Below are positions 992 through 64,000 of a stretch of 64,000 bases of DNA, piece by piece. The number at the start of each line of letters is the position of its first letter. Within the stretch, counting starts at the first letter, position 1. The notes under the pieces were generated by a model that saw only the letters and a program-made list of their open reading frames with translations, searched no databases and was not told where the DNA came from. Origin of the DNA: Escherichia coli (GTDB taxonomy: Bacteria; Pseudomonadota; Gammaproteobacteria; Enterobacterales; Enterobacteriaceae); the NCBI RefSeq assembly GCF_044324875.1, contig NZ_CP172185.1, one strand, 5' to 3'. Made by a program: the position numbers and the translations under genes.

Positions 992-4653
<3,662 letters not shown>

Positions 4654-4677
4654 CTCGCTCTCTTAACTGAAGACGGC

Positions 4678-5379
4678 TTACGATTTACAGTTGAGTTGCG
4701 GCGTTTCCGCCCCGTAGTCATTGATGGTTCGGTACGTTACGCTACTGTTTTGAGCACCCTTTGGCAGAGGGAATTGGTATTTATCAAAGGGGGAAATCAT
4801 TTGATTTTTAACTACTTTTCCACCTATTTTCAGGTCTGTCAGGGTAATGAAATAAGGTGTTGGGTTACTGACCGTAACCATGTCAGCTGACGAAGTGCAA
4901 CGCAGTTTCGCCGGAGCCTCGGCTAAGGGATACGCTAAACCTTTTGGTCGCCAGAAAAGTTTGATGACGCTTTGTGTGGCAATCTTCAGGGTATTGCCTT
5001 CTTCCCGCTTCGTTGTTGAAGGGACTGCCCGTACGCTGGTGAAGAAAAGAGTTTCTCTGTCTTTCGCCAACGGCGCGCCAATGTACATAATGCGTAACAA
5101 ATTCTCGTTTGCCGGATTCAGCACAAATAGCGGTGGTGTAATAATAAAGTCCGCTGATTTTTTATTATCTGGTGTCATCACCCATGACTGAATAAGATAA
5201 GGAACATCCGGACTGGTGTTACGTACACCCAGTGAAATTTGCTCTTCACCTTCCGAATAAACAAGACGTGTTGCTGCAAGTCCGACCCCACCTTTACCTG
5301 CCGCCCATGTGAACGAACAGCTGAGTAATATTGCCGTTAAACTTACGGTCACAATTCCCTTTGTTATGCAAGTTTTCAT
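4678..5379 (-). CDS. elfD: periplasmic fimbrial chaperone (PapD-like)
   Basis: 233 aa, signal peptide, chaperone-like sequence. Confidence 0.9.
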   Translation of the reverse strand: MKTCITKGIVTVSLTAILLSCSFTWAAGKGGVGLAATRLVYSEGEEQISLGVRNTSPDVPYLIQSWVMTPDNKKSADFIITPPLFVLNPANENLLRIMYIGAPLAKDRETLFFTSVRAVPSTTKREEGNTLKIATQSVIKLFWRPKGLAYPLAEAPAKLRCTSSADMVTVSNPTPYFITLTDLKIGGKVVKNQMISPFDKYQFPLPKGAQNSSVTYRTINDYGAETPQLNCKS

Positions 5380-5408
5380 AAATAGTCACTCTTAAAAAAT
5401 ATGGATAT

Positions 5409-5431
5409 CCCCTCCAGAACACTGGAGGGGG
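5409..5431 (-). terminator. GC-rich hairpin between elfA and elfD (intra-operon attenuator/terminator)
   Basis: Inverted repeat cccctccag...ctggagggg followed on the minus strand by a U-rich run; typical position after a major fimbrial subunit gene. Confidence 0.5.
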
Positions 5432-5461
5432 ACTAATTAATAAAACAATTAATGTGTTCTA

Positions 5462-6004
5462 TTAATAATAGTTAATATGAAAATCCGTTACCGCATTAAC
5501 ATTACCTGAAGTCGCTTTACCCGTAGCGATATAATCAACTTTAAAAGTCACTGTTTGCTCAGCGGAATCCGCTAACTGAATATTCGACGTTTCAATACCG
5601 GGAGTTACCGATGTAGAACCATCTGGCAGATACATTTGTAGAGCAACATTCGTCGCTGCATCGGTGGAAGCCTGGTTGGCAAATGCTGTAGGTTGCACTC
5701 CGTCAGCCGTACCACTGAAGGTAAAAGTCGCATTTTTAGTTACAGTAACATCACAGCCTTCTAAGGCAATTGGTACATCAGTTTTAACGCCAGAGACTGC
5801 ACCATTAGTTTGCAACTTGGTGGCGCTGACATTTGGCAATGTGACTACTGAATCTTTGGTCGCAGCTACCAGCGAACAAGCTGGAGCAATGACTTTACCA
5901 TTAAATGTTACTTTGCCATCCGTGATAGCATTATCATCAGCCGCCATAGCACTGGACGTTGCACATACCACAGTTATAAACGCCGTCAATACACTTTTTT
6001 TCAT
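5462..6004 (-). CDS. elfA: major fimbrial subunit ElfA
   Basis: ORF 5462..6013; preferred start MKKSVLTAFITVVCATSSAMA (signal peptide), alternative start 9 nt upstream. Confidence 0.85.
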   Translation of the reverse strand: MKKSVLTAFITVVCATSSAMAADDNAITDGKVTFNGKVIAPACSLVAATKDSVVTLPNVSATKLQTNGAVSGVKTDVPIALEGCDVTVTKNATFTFSGTADGVQPTAFANQASTDAATNVALQMYLPDGSTSVTPGIETSNIQLADSAEQTVTFKVDYIATGKATSGNVNAVTDFHINYY

Positions 6005-6360
6005 CGTTATCATCCTGATTTTTTCGTAAATATGATAATGCCTTTAAATGACATTGGACTTAATAATAACAACAATTGTCCGCCATTTAAATCAAGCATC
6101 CTTAATCCAATAAGTGACAAATCTTTAATTTATAGATTTCATGAATATTTTCTTATTACCTGAATGAGTAATTCATTGATTCAACATCGACTGAATATCC
6201 AATAAATAAATACACGTGATACATATCCCTCAATCCTTAGTTCATTTTTAGAAAAAGATACACAAAATTTATATTTGGCATTTTCTTGTCTCTCCGACAG
6301 ACTGACCGAATTGTTATCAATGTTAACAAAAAAAAGAACAATTGGTTATAAGGAGAGAGT

Positions 6361-6936
6361 ATGCGTGTCATCACCCTGGCGGGTAGTCCTCGCTTTCCTT
6401 CTCGCTCCAGCTCCTTGCTGGAATATGCGCGGGAAAAACTGAATGGCCTGGATGTAGAGGTTTATCACTGGAATCTGCAAAACTTTGCCCCGGAAGATCT
6501 GCTTTATGCTCGTTTCGATAGTCCGGCACTCAAGACCTTCACCGAACAGCTGCAACAGGCTGATGGACTGATAGTCGCTACACCTGTGTATAAAGCCGCC
6601 TATTCCGGCGCGCTGAAAACCCTGCTCGACCTGCTCCCAGAGCGCGCTTTGCAAGGCAAAGTGGTGCTGCCGCTGGCGACAGGCGGCACGGTGGCTCATC
6701 TTTTGGCGGTCGATTACGCCCTTAAACCAGTTTTAAGTGCGCTGAAAGCCCAGGAGATCCTGCACGGCGTGTTTGCCGATGACTCACAGGTGATTGATTA
6801 CCACCACAAGCCGCAGTTCACGCCGAATTTACAAACCCGTCTTGATACCGCGCTAGAAACTTTCTGGCAGGCATTGCACCGTCGGGATGTTCAGGTTCCT
6901 GACCTTCTGTCTCTGCGAGGTAATGCCCATGCGTAA
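6361..6936 (+). CDS. ssuE: NADPH-dependent FMN reductase
   Basis: 191 aa; first gene of ssuEADCB. Confidence 0.9.
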   Translation: MRVITLAGSPRFPSRSSSLLEYAREKLNGLDVEVYHWNLQNFAPEDLLYARFDSPALKTFTEQLQQADGLIVATPVYKAAYSGALKTLLDLLPERALQGKVVLPLATGGTVAHLLAVDYALKPVLSALKAQEILHGVFADDSQVIDYHHKPQFTPNLQTRLDTALETFWQALHRRDVQVPDLLSLRGNAHA

Positions 6937-7888
6937 GATCATTAAACTGGCGCTGGCGGGATTGCTTAGCGTCTCTACACTTGCTGTTGCCGCGGAGTCT
7001 TCGCCAGAGGCGTTACGGATTGGCTATCAGAAAAGCAACATCAGTTCGGTGCTGGCGAAAAATTACCAAATGCTGGAAAAACGCTATCCGCAAACAAAAA
7101 TCTCCTGGGTGGAGTTCCCGGCTGGCCCGCAGATGCTGGAGGCACTGAACGTCGGTAGTATCGATCTGGGTAGTACGGGAGATATTCCGCCAATCTTTGC
7201 TCAGGCCGCCGGGGCTGATTTGCTGTATGTGGGTGTCGAGCCACCGAAGCCCAAAGCCGAAGTGATTCTGGTGGCAGAAAATAGCCCGATCAAAACCGTA
7301 GCCGATCTTAAAGGTCACAAAGTTGCCTTTCAGAAAGGTTCCAGTTCGCACAATCTTTTACTACGCGCACTACGCCAGGCCGGGCTTAAGTTTACCGATA
7401 TACAACCCACTTACCTGACACCCGCTGATGCCCGCGCCGCGTTCCAGCTAGGTAACGTTGACGCCTGGGCTATCTGGGATCCCTACTACTCCGCTGCATT
7501 ATTACAGGGCGGCGTGCGGGTGTTGAAAGACGGCACCGATCTCAATCAAACCGGATCGTTTTATCTGGCAGCCCGTCCGTATGCAGAAAAAAACGGCGCA
7601 GTTATTCAGGGTGTACTGGCAACCTTTAGTGAGGCCGATGCGTTAACCCGCAGCCAGCGCGAGCAAAGCATCGCCTTATTGGCAAAAACGATGGGCTTAC
7701 CGGCCCCGGTGATTGCCTCGTATCTGGATCATCGCCCTCCCACCACCATCAAACCGGTTAACGCCGAAGTTGCCGCCTTACAGCAGCAAACGGCAGATCT
7801 GTTTTATGAAAACCGTCTGGTGCCGAAAAAAGTCGATATTCGCCAGCGTATCTGGCAGCCCACTCAACTGGAAGGAAAACAATTATGA
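6929..7888 (+). CDS. ssuA: aliphatic sulfonate ABC transporter substrate-binding protein
   Basis: Start taken at [21 protein letters not shown] (signal peptide) inside listed ORF 6887..7888; 319 aa. Confidence 0.9.
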
Positions 7889-9030
7889 GTCTGAATATGT
7901 TCTGGTTTTTACCGACCCACGGTGACGGGCATTATCTGGGAACGGAAGAAGGTTCACGCCCGGTTGATCACGGTTATCTGCAACAAATTGCGCAAGCGGC
8001 GGATCGCCTGGGCTATACCGGTGTGCTGATCCCAACGGGGCGCTCCTGCGAAGATGCGTGGCTGGTTGCCGCGTCGATGATCCCGGTGACGCAACGGCTG
8101 AAGTTTCTTGTCGCCCTGCGTCCCAGCGTAACCTCACCTACCGTTGCCGCCCGCCAGGCCGCCACGCTTGACCGTCTCTCGAATGGTCGTGCGTTGTTTA
8201 ATCTGGTCACAGGCAGCGATCCACAAGAGCTGGCAGGCGACGGCGTGTTCCTTGATCATAGCGAGCGCTACGAAGCCTCGGCGGAATTTACCCAGGTCTG
8301 GCGGCGCTTATTGCTGGGGGAAACCGTCAATTTCAACGGTAAACATATTCATGTGCGCGGAGCCAAACTGCTCTTCCCGCCGATTCAACAGCCGTATCCT
8401 CCGCTTTACTTTGGCGGATCGTCAGATGTCGCCCAGGAGCTGGCGGCAGAACAAGTTGATCTCTACCTCACCTGGGGCGAACCGCCGGAACTGGTTAAAG
8501 AGAAAATCGAACAAGTGCGGGCGAAAGCTGCCGCGCATGGACGCAAAATTCGTTTCGGTATTCGTCTGCATGTGATTGTTCGTGAAACCAACGACGAAGC
8601 GTGGCAGGCCGCCGAGCGGTTAATCTCGAATCTTGATGATGAGACTATCGCCAAAGCACAAGCCGCATTCGCCCGGACGGATTCCGTAGGACAACAGCGA
8701 ATGGCGGCGCTACATAACGGCAAGCGCGACAATCTGGAGATCAGCCCCAATTTATGGGCGGGTGTTGGCTTAGTGCGCGGCGGTGCCGGGACGGCACTGG
8801 TGGGCGATGGTCCGACGGTCGCTGCGCGAATCAACGAATACGCTGCACTTGGCATCGACAGTTTTGTGCTTTCGGGCTACCCGCATCTGGAAGAAGCGTA
8901 TCGGGTTGGCGAATTGCTGTTCCCGCATCTGGATGTCGCCATCCCGGAAATTCCGAAGCCGCAGCCGCTGAATCCGCAAGGCGAAGCGGTGGCAAATGAT
9001 TTTATCCCCCGTAAAGCCGCGCAAAGCTAA
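7885..9030 (+). CDS. ssuD: FMNH2-dependent alkanesulfonate monooxygenase
   Basis: 381 aa; 4-nt overlap with ssuA stop. Confidence 0.92.
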
Positions 9031-9040
9031 GGAATAAATA

Positions 9041-9832
9041 ATGGCAACGCCAGTGAAGAAGTGGTTATTGCGCGTTGCCCCCTGGTTTTTACCGGTGGGC
9101 ATCGTGGCGGTGTGGCAACTGGCCTCCTCAGTTGGCTGGCTGTCGACGCGTATTTTGCCCTCTCCGGAAGGAGTGGTGACGGCGTTCTGGACGCTCTCCG
9201 CCAGCGGCGAATTGTGGCAGCATCTGGCGATCAGCTCCTGGCGGGCGTTGATTGGCTTTTCAATTGGCGGATCGCTGGGGTTGATTTTGGGACTGATTAG
9301 CGGGCTATCTCGCTGGGGAGAACGGCTGCTGGATACCTCCATTCAGATGTTGCGTAACGTGCCGCATCTGGCGCTGATCCCGCTGGTGATTTTGTGGTTT
9401 GGCATTGATGAATCCGCAAAAATCTTTCTGGTGGCGCTCGGCACGCTATTCCCCATTTATATCAACACCTGGCACGGCATCCGTAATATCGATCGCGGTC
9501 TGGTGGAAATGGCGCGTAGCTATGGATTATCCGGCATCCCGCTGTTTATCCATGTGATCCTGCCTGGTGCCCTGCCCTCCATTATGGTCGGCGTGCGTTT
9601 TGCGTTGGGCCTGATGTGGCTGACGCTGATTGTTGCCGAAACCATTTCTGCCAATTCCGGCATTGGTTATCTGGCGATGAATGCGCGGGAGTTTCTGCAA
9701 ACGGACGTGGTGGTTGTCGCCATTATTCTTTACGCCCTGCTCGGCAAACTTGCTGACGTCAGCGCGCAGCTGTTAGAGCGCCTCTGGTTGCGCTGGAACC
9801 CGGCTTATCATTTGAAGGAGGCCACGGTATGA
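9041..9832 (+). CDS. ssuC: aliphatic sulfonate ABC transporter permease
   Basis: 263 aa hydrophobic permease-like ORF. Confidence 0.9.
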
Positions 9833-10596
9833 ATACTGCTCGTCTGAACCAGGGCACACCATTGTTGCTCAATGCAGTAAGCAAACATTACGCGGAAAAT
9901 ATCGTCCTGAACCAACTGGATTTACATATTCCGGCTGGTCAGTTTGTGGCGGTGGTGGGCCGCAGCGGTGGTGGCAAAAGTACCCTGCTGCGCCTGCTGG
10001 CAGGTCTGGAAACGCCAACCGCTGGCGATGTGTTAGCGGGCACCACACCGCTGGCTGAAATTCAGGAAGACACGCGAATGATGTTTCAGGATGCGCGTCT
10101 GCTGCCGTGGAAATCGGTGATTGATAACGTTGGGTTAGGCCTTAAAGGCCAGTGGCGCGATGCCGCGCGTCGGGCGTTGGCTGCAGTAGGACTGGAGAAT
10201 CGCGCGGGGGAATGGCCTGCCGCACTTTCTGGCGGGCAGAAACAGCGTGTGGCGCTGGCAAGAGCGTTGATTCATCGACCGGGTTTATTATTGCTTGATG
10301 AACCGCTCGGGGCGCTGGACGCCTTAACGCGACTCGAGATGCAGGATTTGATTGTGTCACTTTGGCAGGAGCACGACTTTACCGTACTGTTGGTGACGCA
10401 TGATGTGAGCGAAGCGGTAGCAATGGCTGACCGGGTGTTGTTAATTGAAGAGGGAAAAATTGGTCTGGATTTGACGGTGGATATCCCCCGTCCGCGCCGG
10501 TTAGGGTCGGTGCGATTAGCGGAGCTGGAAGCGGAAGTGTTGCAACGGGTGATGCAGCGTGGGCACTCTGAACAACCGATTCGGCGTCATGGTTAA
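9829..10596 (+). CDS. ssuB: aliphatic sulfonate ABC transporter ATP-binding protein
   Basis: 255 aa with Walker A (GRSGGGKST) and ABC signature (LSGGQKQR). Confidence 0.92.
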
Positions 10597-10599
10597 TAT

Positions 10600-10800
10600 G
10601 CCGGATGTGGCGCACAAAACCAGCAGTTTCAACGGATTGTAGGCCTGATAAGACGCGTCAAGCGTCGCATCAGGCATTTGGGCACGGCTGCCGGATGCGG
10701 CGTGAACGCCTTATCCAGCCTACAAAACCAGCATTTTCAACGGACTTGTAGGCCTGACAAGACGCGTCAAGCGTCGCATCCGGCATTTTGGCTCAAAAGT
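10600..10800. repeat. REP/BIME cluster (two ~100-bp near-identical units with REP palindromes)
   Basis: Two copies of ...gccggatg(c/t)ggcg...ttcaacgga(c)ttgtaggcctga(t/c)aagacgcgtcaagcgtcgcatc(a/c)ggca... containing the characteristic REP palindrome, between convergent ssuB and pepN. Confidence 0.8.
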
Positions 10801-10801
10801 A

Positions 10802-13414
10802 TCAAGCCAGTGCTTTAGTTATCTTCTCGTACAGATCGCCAGAGAGATTTTCCAGCCCTTTCAACTGCTCCAGCGCCGCGCGCATTTTCTCCTGACGTTT
10901 GGCATCGTAACGCTTCAGGCGAATCAGCGGTTCAATCAGACGTGAAGCCACCTGCGGGTTACGGCTGTTGAGATCGGTTAGCATTTCCACCAGGAACTGG
11001 TAACCGCTGCCATCTTCGGCATGGAACGCTGCCGGGTTGCTGCCCGCAAACGCACCAATCAACGAACGAATACGGTTCGGGTTGCTCATGGTAAATGAGC
11101 GATGCTGCAACAGGCCACGCACCGTCTCCAGCACATTCGCCGCCGGGCTGGTGGCTTGCAGGATAAACCATTTATCCATCACCAGACCATCCTGATGCCA
11201 CTTGTCGTCGTACTCCTGCATCAGCGCGTCACGGCAAGGCAGCTGTGCAGCAACCGCCGCAGAAAGCGCTGCCAGCGCATCGGTCATATTGTTTGCTTCA
11301 TGGTATTGCTTGCTCACCAGCACGTCAGCCAGATGCGTTTCACCAAAAGCAAGGAAGCGCAGGCAGGCATTACGCAGAGTGCGTTTTGCAATATCTTCAT
11401 GCTCAACACGGTACTCGCTCTGGTAATTCGCGTTGTAAATAGCCAGTAGCTCATCCGCCAGTTCAGTCGCCAGAGTACGAGTGAGTGCTTCGCGTACTTC
11501 AGCAATAGCAATCGGGTCGATGATATCGAACAGTTCTGCCATTTCATTGACGGAAGGCAGCGTCAGGATTTCTGCCGCCAGTGCCGGATCAATCTTCTCA
11601 TCAAGCAGTACCGCGCGGAAAGCATCAGCCACATGCACCGGCAGAGACAGCGGCTGACCTTGCTGATGACGCGCGACGTTCAGCTTGATGTAGGTTGCCA
11701 GCAGGCTTTGCGCCGCATCCCAGCGGGAGAAATCATTACGCGCATGACGCATCAGGAAGGTCAGTTGCTGATCGCTCCACTTATATTCCAGTTTCACTGG
11801 CGCAGAGAATTCGCACAGCAGCGCAGGCACCGGCTGGAAGTAGACATTATCAAAGACAAAGGTCTGTTCCGCCTGGGTGACGTTCAGCACCGAATTGACC
11901 GGATGACCGCCTTTCTGCAACGGGATCACTTTGCCTTCGTTATCATACAGTTCGATGGCAAACGGAATATGCAGCGGCTGTTTTTCTGCCTGATCCGGCG
12001 TAGCAGGCGTACGCTGGCTGATGGTCAGGGTGTACTGCTCGGTTTCCGGATTATAGTCGTCTTTGACGGTCACAACCGGCGTACCGGACTGGCTGTACCA
12101 ACGGCGGAAATGAGAGAGATCGACATTTGACGCATCTTCCATTGCCTGAACAAAATCGTCGCAGGTTGCCGCGCTGCCATCATGGCGCTCGAAATAAAGC
12201 TGCATCCCTTTCTGGAAGTTTTCTTCGCCCAGCAGGGTGTGGATCATGCGAATCACTTCCGCGCCCTTCTCGTAAACGGTCAGGGTGTAGAAGTTGTTCA
12301 TCTCAATGACCATATCCGGGCGGATCGGGTGCGCCATCGGGCTGGCGTCTTCTGCAAACTGCAATCCGCGCATGGTGCGCACATTATTGATGCGGTTAAC
12401 TGCGCGGGAACCAAGGTCAGAGCTGAACTCCTGATCGCGGAAGACGGTTAAACCTTCTTTCAGGCTGAGCTGGAACCAGTCGCGGCAAGTCACACGGTTA
12501 CCGGTCCAGTTATGGAAATATTCATGGCCGATAACACGCTCAATATCGAGGTAATCTTTATCGGTGGCGGTGTCGGTACGGGCCAGCACATATTTGGAGT
12601 TAAAGATATTCAGACCTTTATTCTCCATTGCGCCCATATTGAAGAAATCCACCGCGACGATCATATAGATGTCGAGGTCATACTCCAGGCCGAAGCGTTC
12701 TTCATCCCATTTCATGGAGTTTTTCAGCGAGGTCATCGCCCACGGCGCACGATCAAGGTTGCCGCGATCGACGTACAGCTCCAGCGCAACTTCGCGACCA
12801 GAACGCGTGGTGAAGGTGTCGCGCAGCACGTCGAAGTCGCCTGCCACCAGCGCAAACAGGTAGCACGGTTTCGGGAACGGGTCCTGCCACTGTACCCAGT
12901 GACGTCCGTTTTCCAGTTCGCCTTGCGCAACGCGGTTACCGTTGGAAAGCAGGAAGGGATATTTGGTTTTATCGGCAATAATTTTGGTGGTAAAACGCGC
13001 CAGCACGTCCGGGCGGTCAAGATAATACGTAATATGGCGGAAACCTTCGGCTTCACACTGAGTGCAAAGCGCATCGCCTGACTGATAAAGCCCTTCCAGC
13101 GCGGTATTCGTCGCCGGGCTAATTTCATTAACGATCTTAAGCGTAAAACGCTCCGGCAAATTACTGATGACCAGTGCGCCCTCTTCTTCTTTCCAGGCGG
13201 TCCACGGCTCATCATTAATATGAACAGAAACCAGTTTAAGATCTTCGCCATCAAGACGAAGCGGAGCATCTGATGCACCATGACGGACAGCCTGGCTGAC
13301 CGCGGTAACGACCGTCTTTTGCGCGTCCAGGTCAAAGGTCAAGTCAATATCAGTAATCTGGTAATCCGGCGCACGATAATCGTGACGGTATTTGGCTTGT
13401 GGCTGTTGAGTCAT
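10802..13414 (-). CDS. pepN: aminopeptidase N
   Basis: 870 aa; zinc-binding HEYFHNWTGN and downstream E motif present. Confidence 0.95.
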   Translation of the reverse strand: MTQQPQAKYRHDYRAPDYQITDIDLTFDLDAQKTVVTAVSQAVRHGASDAPLRLDGEDLKLVSVHINDEPWTAWKEEEGALVISNLPERFTLKIVNEISPATNTALEGLYQSGDALCTQCEAEGFRHITYYLDRPDVLARFTTKIIADKTKYPFLLSNGNRVAQGELENGRHWVQWQDPFPKPCYLFALVAGDFDVLRDTFTTRSGREVALELYVDRGNLDRAPWAMTSLKNSMKWDEERFGLEYDLDIYMIVAVDFFNMGAMENKGLNIFNSKYVLARTDTATDKDYLDIERVIGHEYFHNWTGNRVTCRDWFQLSLKEGLTVFRDQEFSSDLGSRAVNRINNVRTMRGLQFAEDASPMAHPIRPDMVIEMNNFYTLTVYEKGAEVIRMIHTLLGEENFQKGMQLYFERHDGSAATCDDFVQAMEDASNVDLSHFRRWYSQSGTPVVTVKDDYNPETEQYTLTISQRTPATPDQAEKQPLHIPFAIELYDNEGKVIPLQKGGHPVNSVLNVTQAEQTFVFDNVYFQPVPALLCEFSAPVKLEYKWSDQQLTFLMRHARNDFSRWDAAQSLLATYIKLNVARHQQGQPLSLPVHVADAFRAVLLDEKIDPALAAEILTLPSVNEMAELFDIIDPIAIAEVREALTRTLATELADELLAIYNANYQSEYRVEHEDIAKRTLRNACLRFLAFGETHLADVLVSKQYHEANNMTDALAALSAAVAAQLPCRDALMQEYDDKWHQDGLVMDKWFILQATSPAANVLETVRGLLQHRSFTMSNPNRIRSLIGAFAGSNPAAFHAEDGSGYQFLVEMLTDLNSRNPQVASRLIEPLIRLKRYDAKRQEKMRAALEQLKGLENLSGDLYEKITKALA

Positions 13415-13632
13415 AAATAACCTTTAGCATCTTTTATAGAGTCTGGTGTTCAGTCTATTCCTGTTGCGTAAATCGCGCTATGCAGAATCTTCATCTTTTC
13501 AGGTACAAACGCCTTTATTGCTACATTTTTATAACATACACCGCGTAATGCCATCGACCAGAAAGGTGGCATATGGTGTGATCGGGGTTCAATAAATTGC
13601 GAAACAAGGTATACTCCAGCAGTTCCTGAAGA

Positions 13633-13650
13633 TGTTTATTGTACTAAACG
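13633..13650 (+). promoter_or_regulatory. candidate NadR operator (TGTTTA-N6-TAAACg palindrome) upstream of pncB
   Basis: tgtttattgtactaaacg lies about 30 bp upstream of the pncB ATG; NadR is known to repress pncB; consensus is recalled from memory. Confidence 0.35.
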
Positions 13651-13679
13651 CTCCTGTACGAGGACGCTACTGCGCACCT

Positions 13680-14882
13680 ATGACACAATTCGCTTCTCCT
13701 GTTCTGCACTCGTTGCTGGATACAGATGCTTATAAGTTGCATATGCAGCAAGCCGTGTTTCATCACTATTACGATGTGCATGTCGCGGCGGAGTTTCGTT
13801 GCCGAGGTGACGATCTGCTGGGTATTTATGCCGATGCTATTCGTGAACAGGTTCAGGCGATGCAGCACCTGCGCCTGCAGGATGATGAATATCAATGGCT
13901 CTCAGCCCTGCCTTTCTTTAAGGCCGACTATCTTAACTGGCTACGCGAGTTCCGCTTTAACCCGGAACAAGTCACCGTGTCCAACGATAATGGCAAGCTG
14001 GATATTCGTTTAAGCGGCCCGTGGCGTGAAGTCATCCTCTGGGAAGTTCCTTTGCTGGCGGTTATCAGTGAAATGGTACATCGCTATCGCTCACCGCAGG
14101 CCGACGTTGCGCAAGCCCTCGACACGCTGGAAAGCAAATTAGCCGATTTCTCGGCATTAACCGCCGGTCTTGATATGTCGCGCTTCCATCTGATGGATTT
14201 TGGCACCCGCCGACGTTTTTCTCGTGAAGTACAAGAAACCATCGTGAAACGTCTGCAACAGGAATCCTGGTTCGTGGGCACCAGCAACTACGATCTGGCG
14301 CGTCGGCTTTCCCTCACGCCAATGGGAACACAAGCACACGAATGGTTCCAGGCGCATCAGCAAATCAGTCCGGATCTTGCCAACAGCCAGCGAGCTGCAC
14401 TTGCTGCCTGGCTGGAAGAATATCCCGACCAACTTGGCATTGCATTAACCGACTGCATCACTATGGATGCTTTCCTGCGTGATTTCGGTGTCGAGTTCGC
14501 CAGTCGCTATCAGGGCCTGCGTCATGACTCCGGCGACCCGGTTGAATGGGGTGAAAAAGCCATTGCACATTATGAGAAGCTGGGAATTGATCCACAGAGT
14601 AAAACGCTGGTTTTCTCTGACAATCTGGATTTACGCAAAGCGGTTGAGCTATACCGCCACTTCTCTTCCCGCGTGCAATTAAGTTTTGGTATTGGGACTC
14701 GCCTGACCTGCGATATCCCCCAGGTAAAACCCCTGAATATTGTCATTAAGTTGGTAGAGTGTAACGGTAAACCGGTGGCGAAACTTTCTGACAGCCCTGG
14801 CAAAACTATCTGCCATGATAAAGCGTTTGTTCGGGCGCTGCGCAAAGCGTTCGACCTTCCGCATATTAAAAAAGCCAGTTAA
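13680..14882 (+). CDS. pncB: nicotinate phosphoribosyltransferase
   Basis: Start taken at [25 protein letters not shown] inside listed ORF 13632..14882; 400 aa. Confidence 0.92.
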
Positions 14883-15050
14883 TATCATCAGGGAGCTAAT
14901 CGGCTCCCTTTTTTTACCTTTAATTCCGAAATCTTTCGCTGCATTTGCGAATTCTGCTTGTCTGATTGCAGATGCCAGGTAACATAGGTATCCCCCCATT
15001 TACGGGTGGACAAGTGTTTATTTTTTCCGACTATTAACAGAGAGAATATT

Positions 15051-16451
15051 ATGAGCGTTGTGCCTGTAGCCGACGTACTCCAGGGCCGCGTAGCCGTTGA
15101 CAGCGAAGTCACCGTGCGCGGATGGGTACGTACCCGCCGAGATTCAAAAGCTGGCATCTCCTTCCTCGCCGTTTATGACGGTTCCTGCTTTGATCCTGTA
15201 CAGGCTGTCATCAATAATTCTCTGCCCAATTACAATGAAGACGTCTTGCGTCTGACCACCGGCTGCTCGGTCATTGTGACGGGTAAAGTCGTGGCGTCGC
15301 CGGGCCAGGGGCAACAATTTGAAATTCAGGCCAGCAAGGTTGAAGTTGCTGGTTGGGTTGAAGATCCAGACACTTACCCGATGGCGGCAAAACGCCACAG
15401 CATTGAGTATCTGCGTGAAGTCGCTCACCTGCGTCCGCGCACAAACCTGATTGGTGCCGTCGCGCGCGTTCGCCATACGCTGGCGCAGGCGCTGCATCGC
15501 TTCTTTAACGAGCAGGGATTCTTCTGGGTTTCAACGCCACTGATTACTGCGTCTGATACCGAAGGGGCTGGCGAAATGTTCCGCGTTTCTACGCTGGATC
15601 TGGAAAACCTGCCGCGTAACGATCAGGGCAAAGTGGATTTCGACAAAGACTTCTTTGGTAAAGAGTCTTTCCTGACCGTATCTGGCCAGTTGAACGGCGA
15701 AACCTACGCTTGCGCATTGTCCAAAATTTATACCTTCGGCCCGACTTTCCGTGCTGAAAACTCCAACACCAGCCGTCACCTGGCGGAATTCTGGATGCTG
15801 GAGCCGGAAGTGGCGTTTGCTAACCTGAACGATATTGCGGGTCTGGCTGAAGCCATGCTGAAATATGTCTTCAAAGCGGTTCTCGAAGAACGCGCTGACG
15901 ACATGAAATTCTTCGCTGAACGCGTAGATAAAGATGCCGTTTCACGTCTGGAACGCTTTATTGAGGCCGATTTCGCGCAGGTGGATTACACCGACGCAGT
16001 GACCATTCTCGAAAACTGCGGCAGGAAGTTTGAAAACCCGGTTTACTGGGGCGTCGATCTCTCTTCTGAGCATGAGCGTTATCTGGCGGAAGAACACTTT
16101 AAAGCACCGGTAGTGGTTAAAAACTATCCGAAAGATATTAAAGCGTTCTATATGCGCCTTAACGAAGACGGTAAAACCGTTGCGGCTATGGACGTTCTGG
16201 CTCCGGGCATCGGTGAGATCATTGGTGGCTCCCAGCGTGAAGAGCGTCTGGACGTGCTGGACGAGCGTATGCTGGAAATGGGCCTGAACAAAGAAGATTA
16301 CTGGTGGTATCGCGATCTGCGTCGCTACGGTACTGTTCCGCATTCCGGTTTCGGTCTTGGTTTTGAACGCCTGATTGCTTACGTAACAGGCGTGCAAAAC
16401 GTGCGTGATGTGATTCCGTTCCCACGTACTCCACGTAACGCCAGCTTCTAA
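15051..16451 (+). CDS. asnS: asparagine--tRNA ligase
   Basis: Start taken at [13 protein letters not shown] inside listed ORF; 466 aa; class II aaRS C-terminus ([15 protein letters not shown]). Confidence 0.95.
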
Positions 16452-17764: not shown

Positions 17765-18853
17765 ATGATGAAGCGCAATATTCTGGCAGTGATCGTCCCT
17801 GCTCTGTTAGTAGCAGGTACTGCAAACGCTGCAGAAATCTATAACAAAGATGGCAACAAAGTAGATCTGTACGGTAAAGCTGTCGGTCTGCATTATTTCT
17901 CCAAGGGTAACGGTGAAAACAGTTACGGTGGCAATGGTGACATGACCTATGCCCGTCTTGGTTTTAAAGGGGAAACTCAAATCAATTCCGATCTGACCGG
18001 TTATGGTCAGTGGGAATATAACTTCCAGGGTAACAACTCTGAAGGCGCTGACGCTCAAACTGGTAACAAAACGCGTCTGGCATTCGCGGGTCTTAAATAC
18101 GCTGACGTTGGTTCTTTCGATTACGGCCGTAACTACGGTGTGGTTTATGATGCACTGGGTTACACCGATATGCTGCCAGAATTTGGTGGTGATACTGCAT
18201 ACAGCGATGACTTCTTCGTTGGTCGTGTTGGCGGCGTTGCTACCTATCGTAACTCCAACTTCTTTGGTCTGGTTGATGGCCTGAACTTCGCTGTTCAGTA
18301 CCTGGGTAAAAATGAGCGTGACACTGCACGCCGCTCTAACGGCGACGGTGTTGGCGGTTCTATCAGCTACGAATACGAAGGCTTTGGTATCGTTGGTGCT
18401 TATGGCGCCGCTGACCGTACCAACCTGCAAGAAGCTCAACCTCTTGGCAACGGTAAAAAAGCTGAACAGTGGGCTACTGGTCTGAAGTATGACGCGAACA
18501 ACATCTACCTGGCAGCGAACTACGGTGAAACCCGTAACGCTACGCCGATCACTAATAAATTTACAAACATCAGCGGCTTCGCCAACAAAACGCAAGACGT
18601 TCTGTTAGTTGCGCAATACCAGTTCGATTTCGGTCTGCGTCCGTCCATCGCTTACACCAAATCTAAAGCGAAAGACGTAGAAGGTATCGGTGATGTTGAT
18701 CTGGTGAACTACTTTGAAGTGGGAGCAACCTACTACTTCAACAAAAACATGTCCACCTATGTTGACTACATCATCAACCAGATCGATTCTGACAACAAAC
18801 TGGGCGTAGGTTCTGACGACACCGTTGCTGTGGGTATCGTTTACCAGTTCTAA
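17765..18853 (+). CDS. ompF: outer membrane porin F
   Basis: 362 aa, [22 protein letters not shown] signal peptide, C-terminal ...VGIVYQF. Confidence 0.95.
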
Positions 18854-18878
18854 TAGCACACCTCTTTGTTAAATGCCG

Positions 18879-18910
18879 AAAAAACAGGACTTTGGTCCTG
18901 TTTTTTTTAT
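18879..18910 (+). terminator. rho-independent terminator of ompF
   Basis: Hairpin aacaggactttggtcctgtt followed by a T8 run. Confidence 0.75.
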
Positions 18911-19037
18911 GCCTTCCAGAGCAATCTCACGTCTTGCAAAAACAGCCTGCGTTTTCATCAGTAATAGTTGGAATTTTGTAAATCTCCCGTTACCCTGATA
19001 GCGGACTTCCCTTCTGTAACCATAATGGAACCTCGTC

Positions 19038-20228
19038 ATGTTTGAGAACATTACCGCCGCTCCTGCCGACCCGATTCTGGGCCTGGCCGATCTGTTTCGT
19101 GCCGATGAACGTCCCGGCAAAATTAACCTCGGGATTGGTGTCTATAAAGATGAGACGGGCAAAACCCCGGTACTGACCAGTGTGAAAAAGGCTGAACAGT
19201 ATCTGCTCGAAAATGAAACCACCAAAAATTACCTCGGCATTGACGGCATCCCTGAATTTGGTCGCTGCACTCAGGAACTGCTGTTTGGTAAAGGTAGCGC
19301 CCTGATCAATGACAAACGTGCTCGCACGGCACAGACTCCGGGTGGCACTGGCGCACTACGCGTGGCTGCCGATTTCCTGGCAAAAAATACCAGCGTTAAG
19401 CGTGTGTGGGTGAGCAACCCAAGCTGGCCGAACCATAAGAGCGTCTTTAACTCTGCAGGTCTGGAAGTTCGTGAATACGCTTATTATGATGCGGAAAATC
19501 ACACCCTTGACTTCGATGCACTGATTAACAGCCTGAACGAAGCTCAGGCTGGCGACGTAGTGCTGTTCCATGGCTGCTGCCATAACCCAACCGGTATCGA
19601 CCCTACGCTGGAACAATGGCAGACACTGGCACAACTTTCCGTTGAGAAAGGCTGGTTACCGCTGTTTGACTTCGCTTACCAGGGTTTTGCCCGTGGTCTG
19701 GAAGAAGATGCTGAAGGACTGCGCGCTTTCGCGGCTATGCATAAAGAGCTGATTGTTGCCAGTTCCTACTCTAAAAACTTTGGCCTGTACAACGAGCGTG
19801 TTGGCGCTTGTACTCTGGTTGCTGCCGACAGTGAAACCGTTGATCGCGCATTCAGCCAAATGAAAGCGGCGATTCGCGCTAACTACTCTAACCCACCAGC
19901 ACACGGCGCTTCTGTTGTTGCCACCATCCTGAGCAACGATGCATTACGTGCGATTTGGGAACAAGAGCTGACTGATATGCGCCAGCGTATTCAGCGTATG
20001 CGTCAGTTGTTCGTCAATACGCTGCAGGAAAAAGGCGCAAACCGCGACTTCAGCTTTATCATCAAACAGAACGGCATGTTCTCCTTCAGTGGTCTGACAA
20101 AAGAACAAGTGCTGCGTCTGCGCGAAGAGTTTGGCGTGTATGCTGTTGCTTCTGGTCGTGTGAACGTAGCCGGGATGACACCAGATAACATGGCTCCGCT
20201 GTGCGAAGCGATTGTGGCAGTGCTGTAA
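19038..20228 (+). CDS. aspC: aspartate aminotransferase
   Basis: 396 aa; PLP lysine motif [14 protein letters not shown]. Confidence 0.95.
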
Positions 20229-20243
20229 GCGTTAAAAACAATG

Positions 20244-20272
20244 AAGCCCGCTTAAAAAGCGGGCTTTTTTAT
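20244..20272. terminator. bidirectional terminator between convergent aspC and ycbL
   Basis: Hairpin aagcccgcttaaaaagcgggctt flanked by A-run and T-run. Confidence 0.7.
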
Positions 20273-20278
20273 GCGCCT

Positions 20279-20926
20279 TTACCAGACGGGCATTTCGTCT
20301 TGCAGGAAGGGATTATGCAGGCGCTCATAACCAAGTGTGGATAATGGTCCGTGACCCGGAATAAATGTCACGTCATCCCCCAGTGGCAGCAATTTATCTT
20401 TGATTGAAGAAATCAGTTGATTATGATCGCCACGCGGGAAGTCACTGCGCCCTACTCCACCTTTGAAAATAACATCGCCAGAAATCAGCAGCTTTGCCCG
20501 ATCATCAAAAAATACGACATGACCCGGCGTATGCCCAGGGCAATGTAACACCTGTAAAGCCACATTCCCTATGCTGATGGTATCGCCTTCGTTCAGCCAA
20601 CGATCTGGCGTCAGCGGCTGGCACTCTTCCAGACCAAACATACGACTTTGCGCAGGCAAGCCTTGCAGCCAGAACTCATCTTCTTTTTCCGGGCCAAAAA
20701 CCGGCACGCCGTAATGTTGCGCCAGTTCCGCCGCTGCGCCAACGTGGTCCAGATGACCATGCGTCAGCAGGATCTGCATCAGTGTCAGGCCGCTGGCATC
20801 AACTTCCTGTTTGATTTTTTCCGCATCGCCGCCAGGATCGACCAGTGCGGCCAGTCGGGTTTGTTCACACCAGATCAATGAACAGTTCTGGGAGAATGCG
20901 GTGACCGGAATAATACGATAGTTCAT
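20279..20926 (-). CDS. ycbL: metallo-beta-lactamase fold hydrolase (glyoxalase II-like)
   Basis: 215 aa with THGHLDHVG metal-binding motif. Confidence 0.88.
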
Positions 20927-20952
20927 ACTGCCCCTGTTTCGTTAAGCGATTG

Positions 20953-21501
20953 CTACCAGTGCCGTGCTGGCCCGGTATCAATATGCACAAAGTTACTACG
21001 TGGGTAATATCCTACACCACCTGCGCGCATAGATAACGCGGCTTTGCGAATATTGCTTAACGCGATACCTTCAATATGGAAATCCATCGCCTGCCCTTTC
21101 GTGTGATAGCTTTTCTTCGCTACTCCACGGCTGCGGGCGCGTAGTTCATTGTTGGTATCAATGGAACGATAACCGGAAATGAGTTGCACCGGTTTGCGGG
21201 TGCCTAACAACCCTTGCAGGCGATACAACTGGTCGAATAATCCTGGGTCGATGGACTTTATTTTGTTCGCGCGGTAATCGCGGAAAAAATGGTTAAGTTT
21301 TGCCAATTCTTCCTGAATATAGCCTCTGCCATCGAAAAACTCCGCTTTGATTGACTCTCCGGTATGAAGATTATTGAGTGTCAAAATGCGCGGGCGTGGG
21401 GTAGAGAGTGTTGCAAACGCAGGGGTCGGCAGGATGGCGGCACCGAGTGCAACGCCACCAAGCGCCAGCAGTTTGCGGCGATTAGCGTCGAATTTGTCCA
21501 T
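20953..21501 (-). CDS. mepK: peptidoglycan LD-endopeptidase MepK (YcbK; Tat signal)
   Basis: Start taken at MDKFDANRRKLLALGGVALGAA (twin-arginine-like) inside listed ORF 20953..21510; 182 aa. Confidence 0.85.
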   Translation of the reverse strand: MDKFDANRRKLLALGGVALGAAILPTPAFATLSTPRPRILTLNNLHTGESIKAEFFDGRGYIQEELAKLNHFFRDYRANKIKSIDPGLFDQLYRLQGLLGTRKPVQLISGYRSIDTNNELRARSRGVAKKSYHTKGQAMDFHIEGIALSNIRKAALSMRAGGVGYYPRSNFVHIDTGPARHW

Positions 21502-60412: not shown

Positions 60413-62857
60413 TTACACCTTTTCAACCTGAACAAGGTTTGTATGTGACGGATTCCCCTTAGCGAGAGGAGACGGACGTTGAGTGGTCAGTACATTGATA
60501 CAACCGCCCTTATCGACACGTTTTGCATCCGGGTCATACCAGGCACCTTCACCCAGTGCGACCACACCCGGCATCATTCGTGGCGTCACTTTCGCCTCAA
60601 TATGAACCTCACCACGATCGTTAAAGATCCTGACTTTATCGCCGTTGTTGATACCGCGTTTTTGCGCATCAAGCGGGTTGATCCACATTTCCTGACGGCA
60701 AGCCGCTTTCAGCACATCAACGTTGCCGTAAGTTGAGTGAACGCGAGATTTATAGTGGAAACCCGTAAGCTGCAGCGGATATTGTTTGTTCAGCGGATCC
60801 TGATAACTTTCAAAGCCCGGCGTATAGATCGGCAGTGGATCGATCACATCGCCTTCTGGCAATTCCCAAGTCGCGGCAATGTCAGCCAGCGCCTGCGAAT
60901 AAATCTCAATTTTACCCGATGGCGTGGTCAGTGGATTTGCCTGAGGATCTTCACGGAAAGCTTTATAAGCAACGTGGTGCCCTTGTGGGTCGCGCTTTTT
61001 AAAGATCCCCTGCTTGCGGAACTCTTCAAACGTTGGCAGTTCAGGAATCGCTTCCCGCGACTGGGCATACAGATGCCGCATCCACTCTTCCTGTGTACGG
61101 CCTTCAGTAAACTGTTGCTCAACGCCAAGACGTTTTGCCAGTTCGCTGGTCATTTCATAGATGGTCTTACATTCAAAGCGCGGTTTAATCACCTGATCGT
61201 TGAAAATCACGTAAGACATATTCCCGCAGGATGCATCCAGTGCAAAGTCCATCTGTTCGGAAGCGGTGCAGTCAGGCAGCAGGATGTCAGCATATTTCGC
61301 TGATGAGGTCATGTGGCAGTCGATAACCACAATCAGCTCGCACTTCTTATCATCCTGAAGGATTTCATGGGTACGGTTGATTTCAGAATGCTGGTTAATC
61401 AGGCAGTTACCGGCATAGTTCCAGATCATTTTGATCGGCACATCCAGCTTATCTTTCCCGCGCACACCATCACGCAGCGCTGTCATTTCCGGGCCACGTT
61501 CAATGGCATCGGTCCACATAAACATCGAAATGCTGGTCTGGATCGGGTTTTCGAGGGTCGGCATACGGACAAACGGTAAGCTGTATGAACCTTCACGCGC
61601 GCCGCTGTTGCCTCCGTTAATACCAACGTTACCGGTCAGAATCGCCAGCATCGAGATAGCACGGGTTGCGATTTCACCGTTAGCGTGACGCTGCGGGCCC
61701 CATCCCTGGCTGATAAACGCCGGTTTGGTACTACCGATTTCACGAGCCAATTTGATGATTTTGTCTGCCGGAACACCGGTGATTTGCGAGGCCCATTCCG
61801 GCGTTTTAGCCACGCCATCTGGCCCTTCACCCAGAATATAAGCTTTATAGTGACCATTTTTCGGCGCACTGGCTGGCAGTGTTTTCTCGTCGTAGCCAAC
61901 GCAATATTTATCGAGGAATGCCTGATCCACCAGGTTTTCGGTGATCATGACATACGCCAGACCGTTAACCAGTGCGGCATCTGTTCCTGGACGAATAGGG
62001 ATCCACTCATCTTCGCGCCCGGCACCGGTGTCGGTATAGCGCGGATCGATGATGATCATGCGGGCATTAGATTTCTGACGCGCCTGTTCAAGATAGTAAG
62101 TCACCCCACCGCCACTCATTCGCGTTTCGCCAGGGTTATTACCAAACAGCACTACCAGCTTACTGTTTTCGATATCCGACGGGCTGTTACCATCTGCCCA
62201 GCCGCCATAGGTATAGTTCAAACCTTCCGCAATTTGCGCGGAAGAGTAGTCACCGTAATGGTTCAGATAACCGCCGCAGCAGTTCATCAGGCGAGCGACC
62301 AGGGTATTTCCCGGCGGCCAGGAGCGGGTCATGGTGCCGCCCAGCGTACCGGTACCATAGTTCAGATAGATAGACTCGTTGCCGTACTCTTTGATCAGGC
62401 GCTGCATATTGGTCGCGATGATGTCGTAGGCTTCTTCCCAGCTAATGCGCTCGAATTTGCCTTCACCGCGCGCCCCGACTCGTTTCATCGGATATTTCAG
62501 GCGGTCCGGATTGTAGACACGGCGACGCATGGAACGCCCACGCAGACAGGCGCGCACCTGGTGCAGGCCGTCATAGTTGTCATCGCCGGTATTATCCGTT
62601 TCAACATATTTAATTTCACCGTCCACAACGTGCATACGTAGCGGGCAGCGACTACCACAGTTAACTGTACAGGCGCTCCAGATAACCTTTTCGTCTGATT
62701 TTGCCGGAAGGGCACTATCAACAGCGTGCGCAATCCGACTAAAAGGTAATGTTAACGCGCTGCTTGCCATTGCCAGGCCGCCGATCGCTGTCGTTTTTAC
62801 CAAACCACGGCGACTCACCTCAGCAGCCAATACCGCATCAGGGATTTTCGTTTTCAT
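60413..62857 (-). CDS. dmsA: DMSO reductase catalytic molybdopterin subunit (Tat signal)
   Basis: 814 aa; twin-arginine leader (SRRGLVKTTAIGG), CTVNCGSRCP Fe-S motif. Confidence 0.95.
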   Translation of the reverse strand: MKTKIPDAVLAAEVSRRGLVKTTAIGGLAMASSALTLPFSRIAHAVDSALPAKSDEKVIWSACTVNCGSRCPLRMHVVDGEIKYVETDNTGDDNYDGLHQVRACLRGRSMRRRVYNPDRLKYPMKRVGARGEGKFERISWEEAYDIIATNMQRLIKEYGNESIYLNYGTGTLGGTMTRSWPPGNTLVARLMNCCGGYLNHYGDYSSAQIAEGLNYTYGGWADGNSPSDIENSKLVVLFGNNPGETRMSGGGVTYYLEQARQKSNARMIIIDPRYTDTGAGREDEWIPIRPGTDAALVNGLAYVMITENLVDQAFLDKYCVGYDEKTLPASAPKNGHYKAYILGEGPDGVAKTPEWASQITGVPADKIIKLAREIGSTKPAFISQGWGPQRHANGEIATRAISMLAILTGNVGINGGNSGAREGSYSLPFVRMPTLENPIQTSISMFMWTDAIERGPEMTALRDGVRGKDKLDVPIKMIWNYAGNCLINQHSEINRTHEILQDDKKCELIVVIDCHMTSSAKYADILLPDCTASEQMDFALDASCGNMSYVIFNDQVIKPRFECKTIYEMTSELAKRLGVEQQFTEGRTQEEWMRHLYAQSREAIPELPTFEEFRKQGIFKKRDPQGHHVAYKAFREDPQANPLTTPSGKIEIYSQALADIAATWELPEGDVIDPLPIYTPGFESYQDPLNKQYPLQLTGFHYKSRVHSTYGNVDVLKAACRQEMWINPLDAQKRGINNGDKVRIFNDRGEVHIEAKVTPRMMPGVVALGEGAWYDPDAKRVDKGGCINVLTTQRPSPLAKGNPSHTNLVQVEKV

Positions 62858-63153
62858 AATGGCTCACTCAAGCTTGCTCACGATTGATTCCAGTAACAAA
62901 CCGTATTGTGTAATTATTTCTATAGCAGTTCGCTATATAGGCTTGTATACATCGAATAATTTGAAAATCAAAGAGATAGGTAGATTTTCACTCGAAAGTA
63001 GTATTACGTGTAAGTGAGGAGTAATTATTGTTCGGTATCAAAGGGAGACAAAAAAAGCGCCCGCAGGAGATTTAACGGTACTTACTCCTCTTGCTGATTT
63101 CCTTATTTTTCAATAAGTAAACAAAAACAAGGGGAGCAAATTATCACAAATAA

Positions 63154-64000
63154 TTACTGGTCGATGGACAGTTTATGGACACTTTCAGCCAGCGGATTAA
63201 AGCTGATCGCATCCTGTAAAAAGTCCGGTGAAAAATGCGCATACGTCATCGTTTGCTGAATCGTGGCGTGACCCAGGATCCTCTGCAACGTGACGATGTT
63301 CCCGCCGTTCATCATGAAATGCGTGGCGAACGTGTGCCGCATGACATGCGTGGCCTGCCCTTTGGGTAAGTCGGGCTTCACCTCCTGAAGGATCTCCCTG
63401 AAACTGAGATAATCAACCTGATATAACAGGCCGGTCCGGCGGGTTTTAATTAACGGCACAACGGAATCAGCTACAGGAACCGAGCGCGATTTCCCGTTCT
63501 TTGTGTTAAAGAACGTCACCCTGTTACCCACGATGTGTTCCCCGCGAAGCGTTGACGCCTCTTTCCATCTGGCCCCGGTCGAAAGGCACAGAATGGCAAT
63601 GCGTCGTGCATCACCCTCAAGCCGTTTCAGAAGGCGATCAATCTCGTCATCTGAAAGAAAGGCCATTTCTGTATTCTGAACCTTGAGTTTACGTATTCCG
63701 CGCACAGGGTTTTCGTTATGATAAACCTCCGCGTCAATTAACAACGAAAACATCGCAGATAAGGCGCACAGGTCGCGATTGATACTGGACGGCATCAGTC
63801 CCGCCTGCAACTTATCCGAGCGATACTCAATCACGAATTTTCGTGTCATCTGGCTGGCGCGCGGGTCCCCCATTTCACGTATCACCTTCTCCAGTCTGGT
63901 TCTGTAGGTATCACCATATGCCTGATTACGACCATCAAGCATCCACCACACCTCAATCAGTTCTGATAACCGCCGTTGATCGGCGGGCCTTGCCTGCCAC
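63154..64000 (-). CDS. int: P2-family phage tyrosine integrase (partial; N-terminus beyond window end)
   Basis: Frame is open on the minus strand from the stop at 63154 through 64000 (...WQARPADQRRLSELIEVWWMLDGR...); tyrosine-recombinase motifs ILCLSTGARW, HVMRHTFATHF, LGHATIQQTMTYAHF; strongly resembles P2 Int as recalled from memory; the listed ORF start at 63951 is an internal GTG. Confidence 0.8.
   Translation of the reverse strand, partial: WQARPADQRRLSELIEVWWMLDGRNQAYGDTYRTRLEKVIREMGDPRASQMTRKFVIEYRSDKLQAGLMPSSINRDLCALSAMFSLLIDAEVYHNENPVRGIRKLKVQNTEMAFLSDDEIDRLLKRLEGDARRIAILCLSTGARWKEASTLRGEHIVGNRVTFFNTKNGKSRSVPVADSVVPLIKTRRTGLLYQVDYLSFREILQEVKPDLPKGQATHVMRHTFATHFMMNGGNIVTLQRILGHATIQQTMTYAHFSPDFLQDAISFNPLAESVHKLSIDQ

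Follow-up and report, generated by a model that had tools for sequence, protein, structure and literature searches.

In an Escherichia coli genome (RefSeq assembly GCF_044324875.1, contig NZ_CP172185.1), a stretch of 64,000 nucleotides that was analysed as a whole (referred to here as the window) ends in a phage-type integrase gene lying immediately upstream of dmsA. An earlier note on this DNA, made from the sequence alone, took the gene as the mark of a probable prophage or island boundary and pointed out that the neighbouring FNR-controlled promoter of dmsA, and with it the regulation of the anaerobic DMSO reductase, could be affected. The locus raises the questions of what kind of element the integrase belongs to, at which base the foreign DNA begins, and what is left of the dmsA promoter region beside it.

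The explanation that best accounts for the data is that positions 63053-64000 represent the integrase-proximal junction (of the B-O-P' type) of a P2-family (Peduoviridae) prophage lying in the terminator hairpin of serS, and we consider this to be very probably correct. The element beyond the end of the window is likely to be the modal 37-kb prophage found in related genomes; otherwise, it would be a deletion derivative of that prophage.

The integrase gene and its junction with the host chromosome

The minus-strand gene dmsA occupies 60413..62857 and starts with an ATG at 62857-62855. A frame check of the adjacent DNA showed a minus-strand open reading frame with its stop codon at 63154-63156, which stays open to 64000 and comprises 281 codons in the window. 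The non-coding gap between dmsA and this frame is 296 bp long (62858..63153), and the coordinates of the earlier note, which let the integrase end at 63154, 296 bp from the dmsA start, and run open past the window end, hold. The frame represents the 3' 846 nt of a P2-family int gene (63154..64000, minus strand), namely the stop codon and codons 51-331 of a protein of 331 aa. Its translation in the window (281 aa) has hits to integrase families of PHROG (phrog_1, E 1e-62) and scores below the cut-offs of the NCBIfam Xer and integron recombinase models, which together indicate a tyrosine recombinase that is not a Xer protein.

The complete protein could be read from eight records of complete E. 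coli genomes that match the window at all 1,143 bases of 62858-64000 (100% identity); their int gene measures 996 nt and encodes 331 aa (WP_029399967.1). An Int_N domain (PF24624, E 3.8e-30) and two stretches of Phage_integrase (PF00589, E 4.5e-9 and 1.2e-5) were detected in this protein by Pfam. It has the same length as P2 Int (AF063097) and is 51% identical to it from end to end (334 aa, E 1e-133), and a tblastn comparison gave 55.6% identity to Peduovirus integrases. The catalytic residues R194, K217/K220, H268-x-x-R271, H294, and Y303 are identical in P2 Int, and all of them are encoded in 63154-64000. The identity to P2 Int, the Pfam domains, and the PHROG match bear out the assignment of the gene, made earlier from the sequence alone, to the P2-Int-like tyrosine integrases.

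In K-12, the same position is taken up by a serS-dmsA spacer of 238 bp with no gene, as the earlier note had stated. The comparison of the dmsA upstream region with K-12, which the note had proposed as a way of finding the junction, located it: the alignment shows the window to be identical to K-12 from dmsA to 63067 and unrelated to K-12 from 63068 on. Collinearity breaks within the hairpin of the serS terminator. Strains LH10-b-1 and 135 have the same integrase, and in them K-12 sequence restarts beside serS; the K-12 stretches on the serS and dmsA sides have 15 bp in common, so that AAAAGCGCCCGCAGG stands at both ends of the insert in these two strains. A second copy of AAAAGCGCCCGCAGG adjoins serS in every related genome examined. 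The att core was accordingly placed at 63053-63067, 15 bp that are identical in attB (K-12), in the window junction, and in the serS-side junction of the relatives; this lies within 62858..63153, the interval in which an attachment site had been suspected. Identity of the core to attB reaches 63073 (21 bp) if two mismatches are allowed, and the window has a single copy of an extended 23-mer (63050-63072), where chance would predict 0. By folding, the core in K-12 corresponds to the left half and the loop of the serS terminator hairpin, AAAAAGCGCC-UGCG-GGCGCUUUUUUU on the serS strand.

The attachment site compared with that of P2

A predicted attP was built by joining the phage-side flanks of both junctions, with the serS-side flank taken from the relatives LH10-b-1 and 135. 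Its parts follow one another in the order hairpin terminator, P arm, AT-rich tract, core, AT-rich spacer, and P' repeats. The P arm, which lies beside ogr in the two relatives, contains TGGACA twice, 11 bp apart, and the AT-rich tract AAATAAAATCCATTTATTTTCA resembles the IHF site annotated in P2. The predicted junction contains TACCATGCAAAAGCGCCCGCAGGAGATTTAACGG; its core ends in GGAGATTT / GGAGATTTA and is followed by an AT-rich spacer of 86 bp. In the window, this spacer is the non-coding arm of phage origin that separates the core from int (63068..63153); it has a GC content of 30% and is unrelated to K-12. On the int strand, it folds into a long imperfect hairpin (z -2.25) with no U-run behind it. 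Two copies of ATGGACA, 11 bp apart, lie at 63164..63181 within the last int codons and are candidate Int-binding repeats of the P' arm type.

The annotated attP of P2 (AF063097) is built up in the same order, with comparable distances between its parts. In the P' arm of P2, CTGTGGACACTGTGTGGACAC (AF063097 24470-24496), the TGGACA pair recurs at an equal spacing and, as in the window, within the 3' end of int; the P2 core AAAAAATAAGCCCGTGTAAGGGAGATTT resembles the core of the window and shares the ending GGAGATTT; and in both elements some 80-86 bp separate the core from the stop codon of int. Judged by this likeness, the window holds the B-O-P' junction of a P2-type site. By analogy, Int, IHF, and Cox would bind to the parts of this site; the repeats at 63164-63181 may serve as the Int-binding sites of the P' arm and the arm at 63068-63153 may correspond to the Cox-binding stretch of P2 attP. 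The attB is different, however: the element of the window uses the serS terminator, unlike P2, and its identity with attB measures 15 bp as against the 27-bp core of P2.

The prophage most probably entered by Int-mediated site-specific recombination in the serS terminator hairpin. Further steps can be outlined by analogy with P2, in which C and int are co-transcribed from the Pc promoter. Int would bind the core and the arm repeats, and IHF would bend the P arm. Excision would be directed by the Cox homologue through the arm at 63068-63153, and C and int would be transcribed together toward dmsA from a promoter of the Pc type.

The element in genomes with the same integrase allele

The window ends 846 nt into int, and the content of the element was therefore read from relatives with the same integrase allele. 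Among complete genomes, strain 135 gives the best backbone match to the last 25 kb of the window (99.1%), and its element is 37.3 kb long. The element starts with int, a helix-turn-helix repressor of the C type, a Cox-family gene, small early genes, and the gpA replication endonuclease. These are followed by the portal, terminase, scaffold, capsid, and gpM genes, then by head completion, X, and lysis genes (Q, P, O, N, M, and L among them), and then by R, S, V, W, J, I, H, and G. The far end is made up of an inverted FI-FII-E-E'-T-U block, D, ogr, 3.7 kb of repeat-rich DNA, the P arm, and the core beside serS. C and int lie on the same strand in the relatives, 69 bp apart. Both the int-C / cox order and the position of D-ogr beside attP are shared by P2 and the relatives. 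Thus, the P2-like prophage or remnant that the earlier note had expected to extend rightward was found in relatives with the identical allele, complete with C, cox, gpA, head, lysis, and tail genes, ogr, and a second core; for the genome of the window itself, it is deduced from these relatives.

Several features set the relatives apart from P2. The Cox-family protein of the LH10-b-1 locus (local 1807-2328) has 173 aa and matches phrog_23196 (E 2e-92), whereas P2 Cox has about 91 aa. The FI-FII-E-E'-T-U block, which lies between G and D, is inverted relative to P2 in both the 37-kb and the 21-kb form of the element (strain 135 local 8967-15040; LH10-b-1 local 11233-16241). Also unlike P2, the relatives carry about 3.7 kb without long open reading frames between ogr and the P arm (LH10-b-1 local 17900-21100; strain 135 local 3700-7400). 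This stretch consists of two to four diverged direct repeats; it contains a single gene annotated as Hok/Gef and a pair of sok matches (48.1 and 46.2 bits, below the gathering score of 59), and from its sequence it looks like tandem hok/sok-like cargo at the prophage end. In another extracted locus of LH10-b-1 (L001, local 12300-13730), the annotation lists ycaM as a pseudogene because of a stop codon inside it.

Element sizes were obtained by combining integrase coordinates with the coordinates of the serS-side arm in 26 records. They fall mostly between 36 and 40 kb: 37.3-37.4 kb in at least ten distinct genomes, 40.0 kb in two, and 36.0 kb in one. Shortened elements are present in four of the approximately 17 distinct genomes with the window allele, namely GF4 (29.9 kb), LH10-b-1 (21.3 kb; NZ_CP100530.1 3140110-3161418), F11 (17.8 kb, with IS5, in two records of one genome), and LR-31 (12.8 kb). 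The LH10-b-1 form has lost the replication, head, and lysis genes, and what remains of it is int-C-cox together with the tail genes, D, and ogr. The elements of F11, LR-31, and GF4 look like separate deletions. A tailocin-like element, considered on account of the LH10-b-1 form, was rejected as an explanation because this form was found in one genome only and, in other genomes, a 37-kb prophage begins with the same allele.

These shortened forms bear on the question of whether the genome of the window carries a decayed remnant, with the same junction and large internal deletions, instead of an inducible prophage. Three of the four deletion genomes are 100% identical to the window over 62858-64000, and the tape-measure gene is annotated as disrupted in strains 135 and LH10-b-1, all of which would agree with a remnant. 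However, each deletion form is restricted to a single strain, and the modal size is shared by the genomes noted above, including strain 135 as the closest backbone match. A remnant is therefore possible but clearly the less likely state of the element, and the modal prophage remains our preferred reading.

Far less probable is a second alternative, in which the integrase would belong to some other island (a satellite or an integrative element) or would be an orphan gene resembling P2 Int. The window itself would allow for it, as it shows only the integrase and the downstream arm. Against it, P2-type C-cox genes follow int directly in LH10-b-1, 135, STEC2018-607, ON470599, and an IMG/VR contig, and the serS-side arm, with its P-arm repeats of the P2 type, is present in 26/26 records with the window allele. 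We consider this alternative very improbable, and the P2-family prophage junction is retained.

Distribution of the integrase at the serS-dmsA site

A survey of 5,426 complete E. coli genomes showed how widely the site is occupied. The host part of the query, which is proximal to dmsA, matches 5,424 of these genomes, and the integrase is found at the serS-dmsA site in 350 (approximately 6%), an occupied site being counted as a match to at least 80% of the query 62858-64000. The condition under which the earlier note would have given up the boundary, namely the same integrase forming part of the conserved core of all E. coli, is excluded by these counts. Nothing was found in favour of the reading that the integrase is a conserved chromosomal gene marking no boundary, and it can, with 350 of 5,426 genomes matching at least 80% of the query, 5,424 matching its host part, and a geneless spacer in K-12, be dismissed as next to impossible.

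The window allele (at least 99% identity) accounts for about 26 records, or approximately 17 distinct genomes. A sister integrase allele, with approximately 85% DNA identity and 90% protein identity, is present in 324 genomes and heads full P2-like prophages at the same core, as in STEC2018-607, ON470599, ON470623, and one IMG/VR contig. Two of these P2-like prophages were deposited as phage records, ON470599 (vB_EcoM-569R5) and ON470623 (vB_EcoM-705R2). They have the same integration site and core as the window, and both records take in host flank as far as ycaO (ycaO..dmsA in ON470599). Prophages with the sister allele share the int-C-cox organisation and the P' arm repeats, but their early-region genes differ from those of the element with the window allele.

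Searches for close relatives among sequenced phages returned none near the 37-kb form, the best match having 78% identity over 29% of the query. Escherichia phage P88 and Xuanwuvirus (Peduoviridae) are nearest to the head module of this form (78-79% identity over 21-29%). This distance is too great for them to belong to one species with it, and their integrases are approximately 53% identical to that of the window. A free attP or circular junction was found neither in IMG/VR (0) nor in JGI metagenome contigs (0), and a search of GenBank phage records with the predicted attP gave integrated junctions only. With no free attP found and no close sequenced phage, the activity of this lineage is unproven. 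No description of prophage integration at serS/dmsA was found in the literature searched.

The dmsA promoter and the serS terminator hairpin

The host DNA between the core and dmsA (62858..63052, minus strand) contains the dmsA promoter and 5' leader and is identical to K-12. Within the leader, a ModE-like palindrome, CGCTATATAGGCTTGTATACATCG, lies at 62931..62954 and is untouched by the insertion; from its resemblance to the ModE consensus, it is a candidate ModE site. On the dmsA strand, an FNR box, TTGATaccgAACAA, is located at 63041-63028 by its motif position. The FNR site of dmsABC has been placed at -41.5 (Myers et al. 2013, PMC3688515), from which, together with the position of the box, a probable dmsA transcription start close to 62993 and a leader of approximately 136 nt were calculated. 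On this scale, the core extends from -60 to -74, that is, the insertion point lies 60-74 bp upstream of the predicted FNR-dependent start, and the first phage-specific base is at -75. The promoter from about -74 downstream, including the FNR box, is identical to K-12.

What the insertion changes is the DNA above the promoter. In K-12, the serS hairpin stands directly upstream of the dmsA promoter; in the window, it is no longer between int and the promoter. Folding of the strand that leads from int to the dmsA promoter showed the serS-type hairpin to be gone (z +0.44 vs shuffles), and a terminator scan detected no terminator-like site between int and dmsA in the window. The scan, a simple one, missed the K-12 serS hairpin too, probably because A/U extensions use up the U-run, and folding was used instead. 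At the serS-side junction of the relatives, the hairpin is kept and is followed by U4 in place of U7, and a phage terminator lies approximately 90 nt beyond it.

The two integrase alleles differ at this point. The phage arm beside the core reads CGCTTT in ON470599 (local 11579-11599) vs AGATTT in the window (63053-63073). With the CGCTTT arm, identity to attB reaches 21 bp and the terminator hairpin is re-formed between int and dmsA; with the AGATTT arm, it is not.

The expectation that the integrase insertion could affect FNR control of dmsA is no more than a geometric possibility, with the FNR box itself unchanged. The recombination would take place inside a bidirectional terminator hairpin, which the int-side junction loses. 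If C and int are transcribed toward dmsA as in P2, lysogenic transcription may then run unterminated across the FNR box into dmsABC in the allele with the AGATTT arm only. It would lead to oxygen-independent read-through expression of DMSO reductase or to occlusion of the FNR promoter, and either outcome would amount to a lysogenic conversion of anaerobic respiration. We rate this reading as distinctly unlikely.

The same region also gave a full-length match to Rfam RF02084 (STnc130), a predicted small RNA antisense to the dmsA leader, at 62948..63082 on the plus strand (125.8 bits, gathering threshold 55). The score is 140.1 bits in K-12 vs 125.8 bits in the window, and the lower value is explained by the breaking of two of the eight terminator-stem pairs, the 3' half being phage DNA. 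The STnc130 terminator hairpin is the attB hairpin, which is intact in K-12 and absent from the fold of the window; read literally, the match would mean that the phage has a small-RNA terminator for its attB. In Salmonella, STnc130 (serS/dmsA, antisense) was listed among the class V predictions, its cDNA read count being 0 and its Northern entry 'nd' (Sittka et al. 2008 supplement), and it is still termed putative in a later paper. No promoter-like site for STnc130 was found on the plus strand. The idea that the integration disrupts a small RNA was downgraded because the RNA is a prediction undetected in Salmonella with no promoter-like site on its strand, and conservation of the dmsA promoter and of the serS terminator, rather than of an RNA gene, is the most likely source of the RF02084 match.

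With this analysis, one prophage boundary is known to the exact base, and the hairpin of the serS terminator emerges as an attachment site of a P2-like phage family, which occupies the serS-dmsA site in approximately 6% of complete E. coli genomes. As E. coli prophage junctions go, the one in the window is of an ordinary, if variable, kind. These results can be used in genome annotation and in the comparison of strains at the serS-dmsA locus. Moreover, the site provides a natural experiment, in which two integrase/arm alleles are found at one position, one keeping and one removing the terminator before the dmsA promoter.
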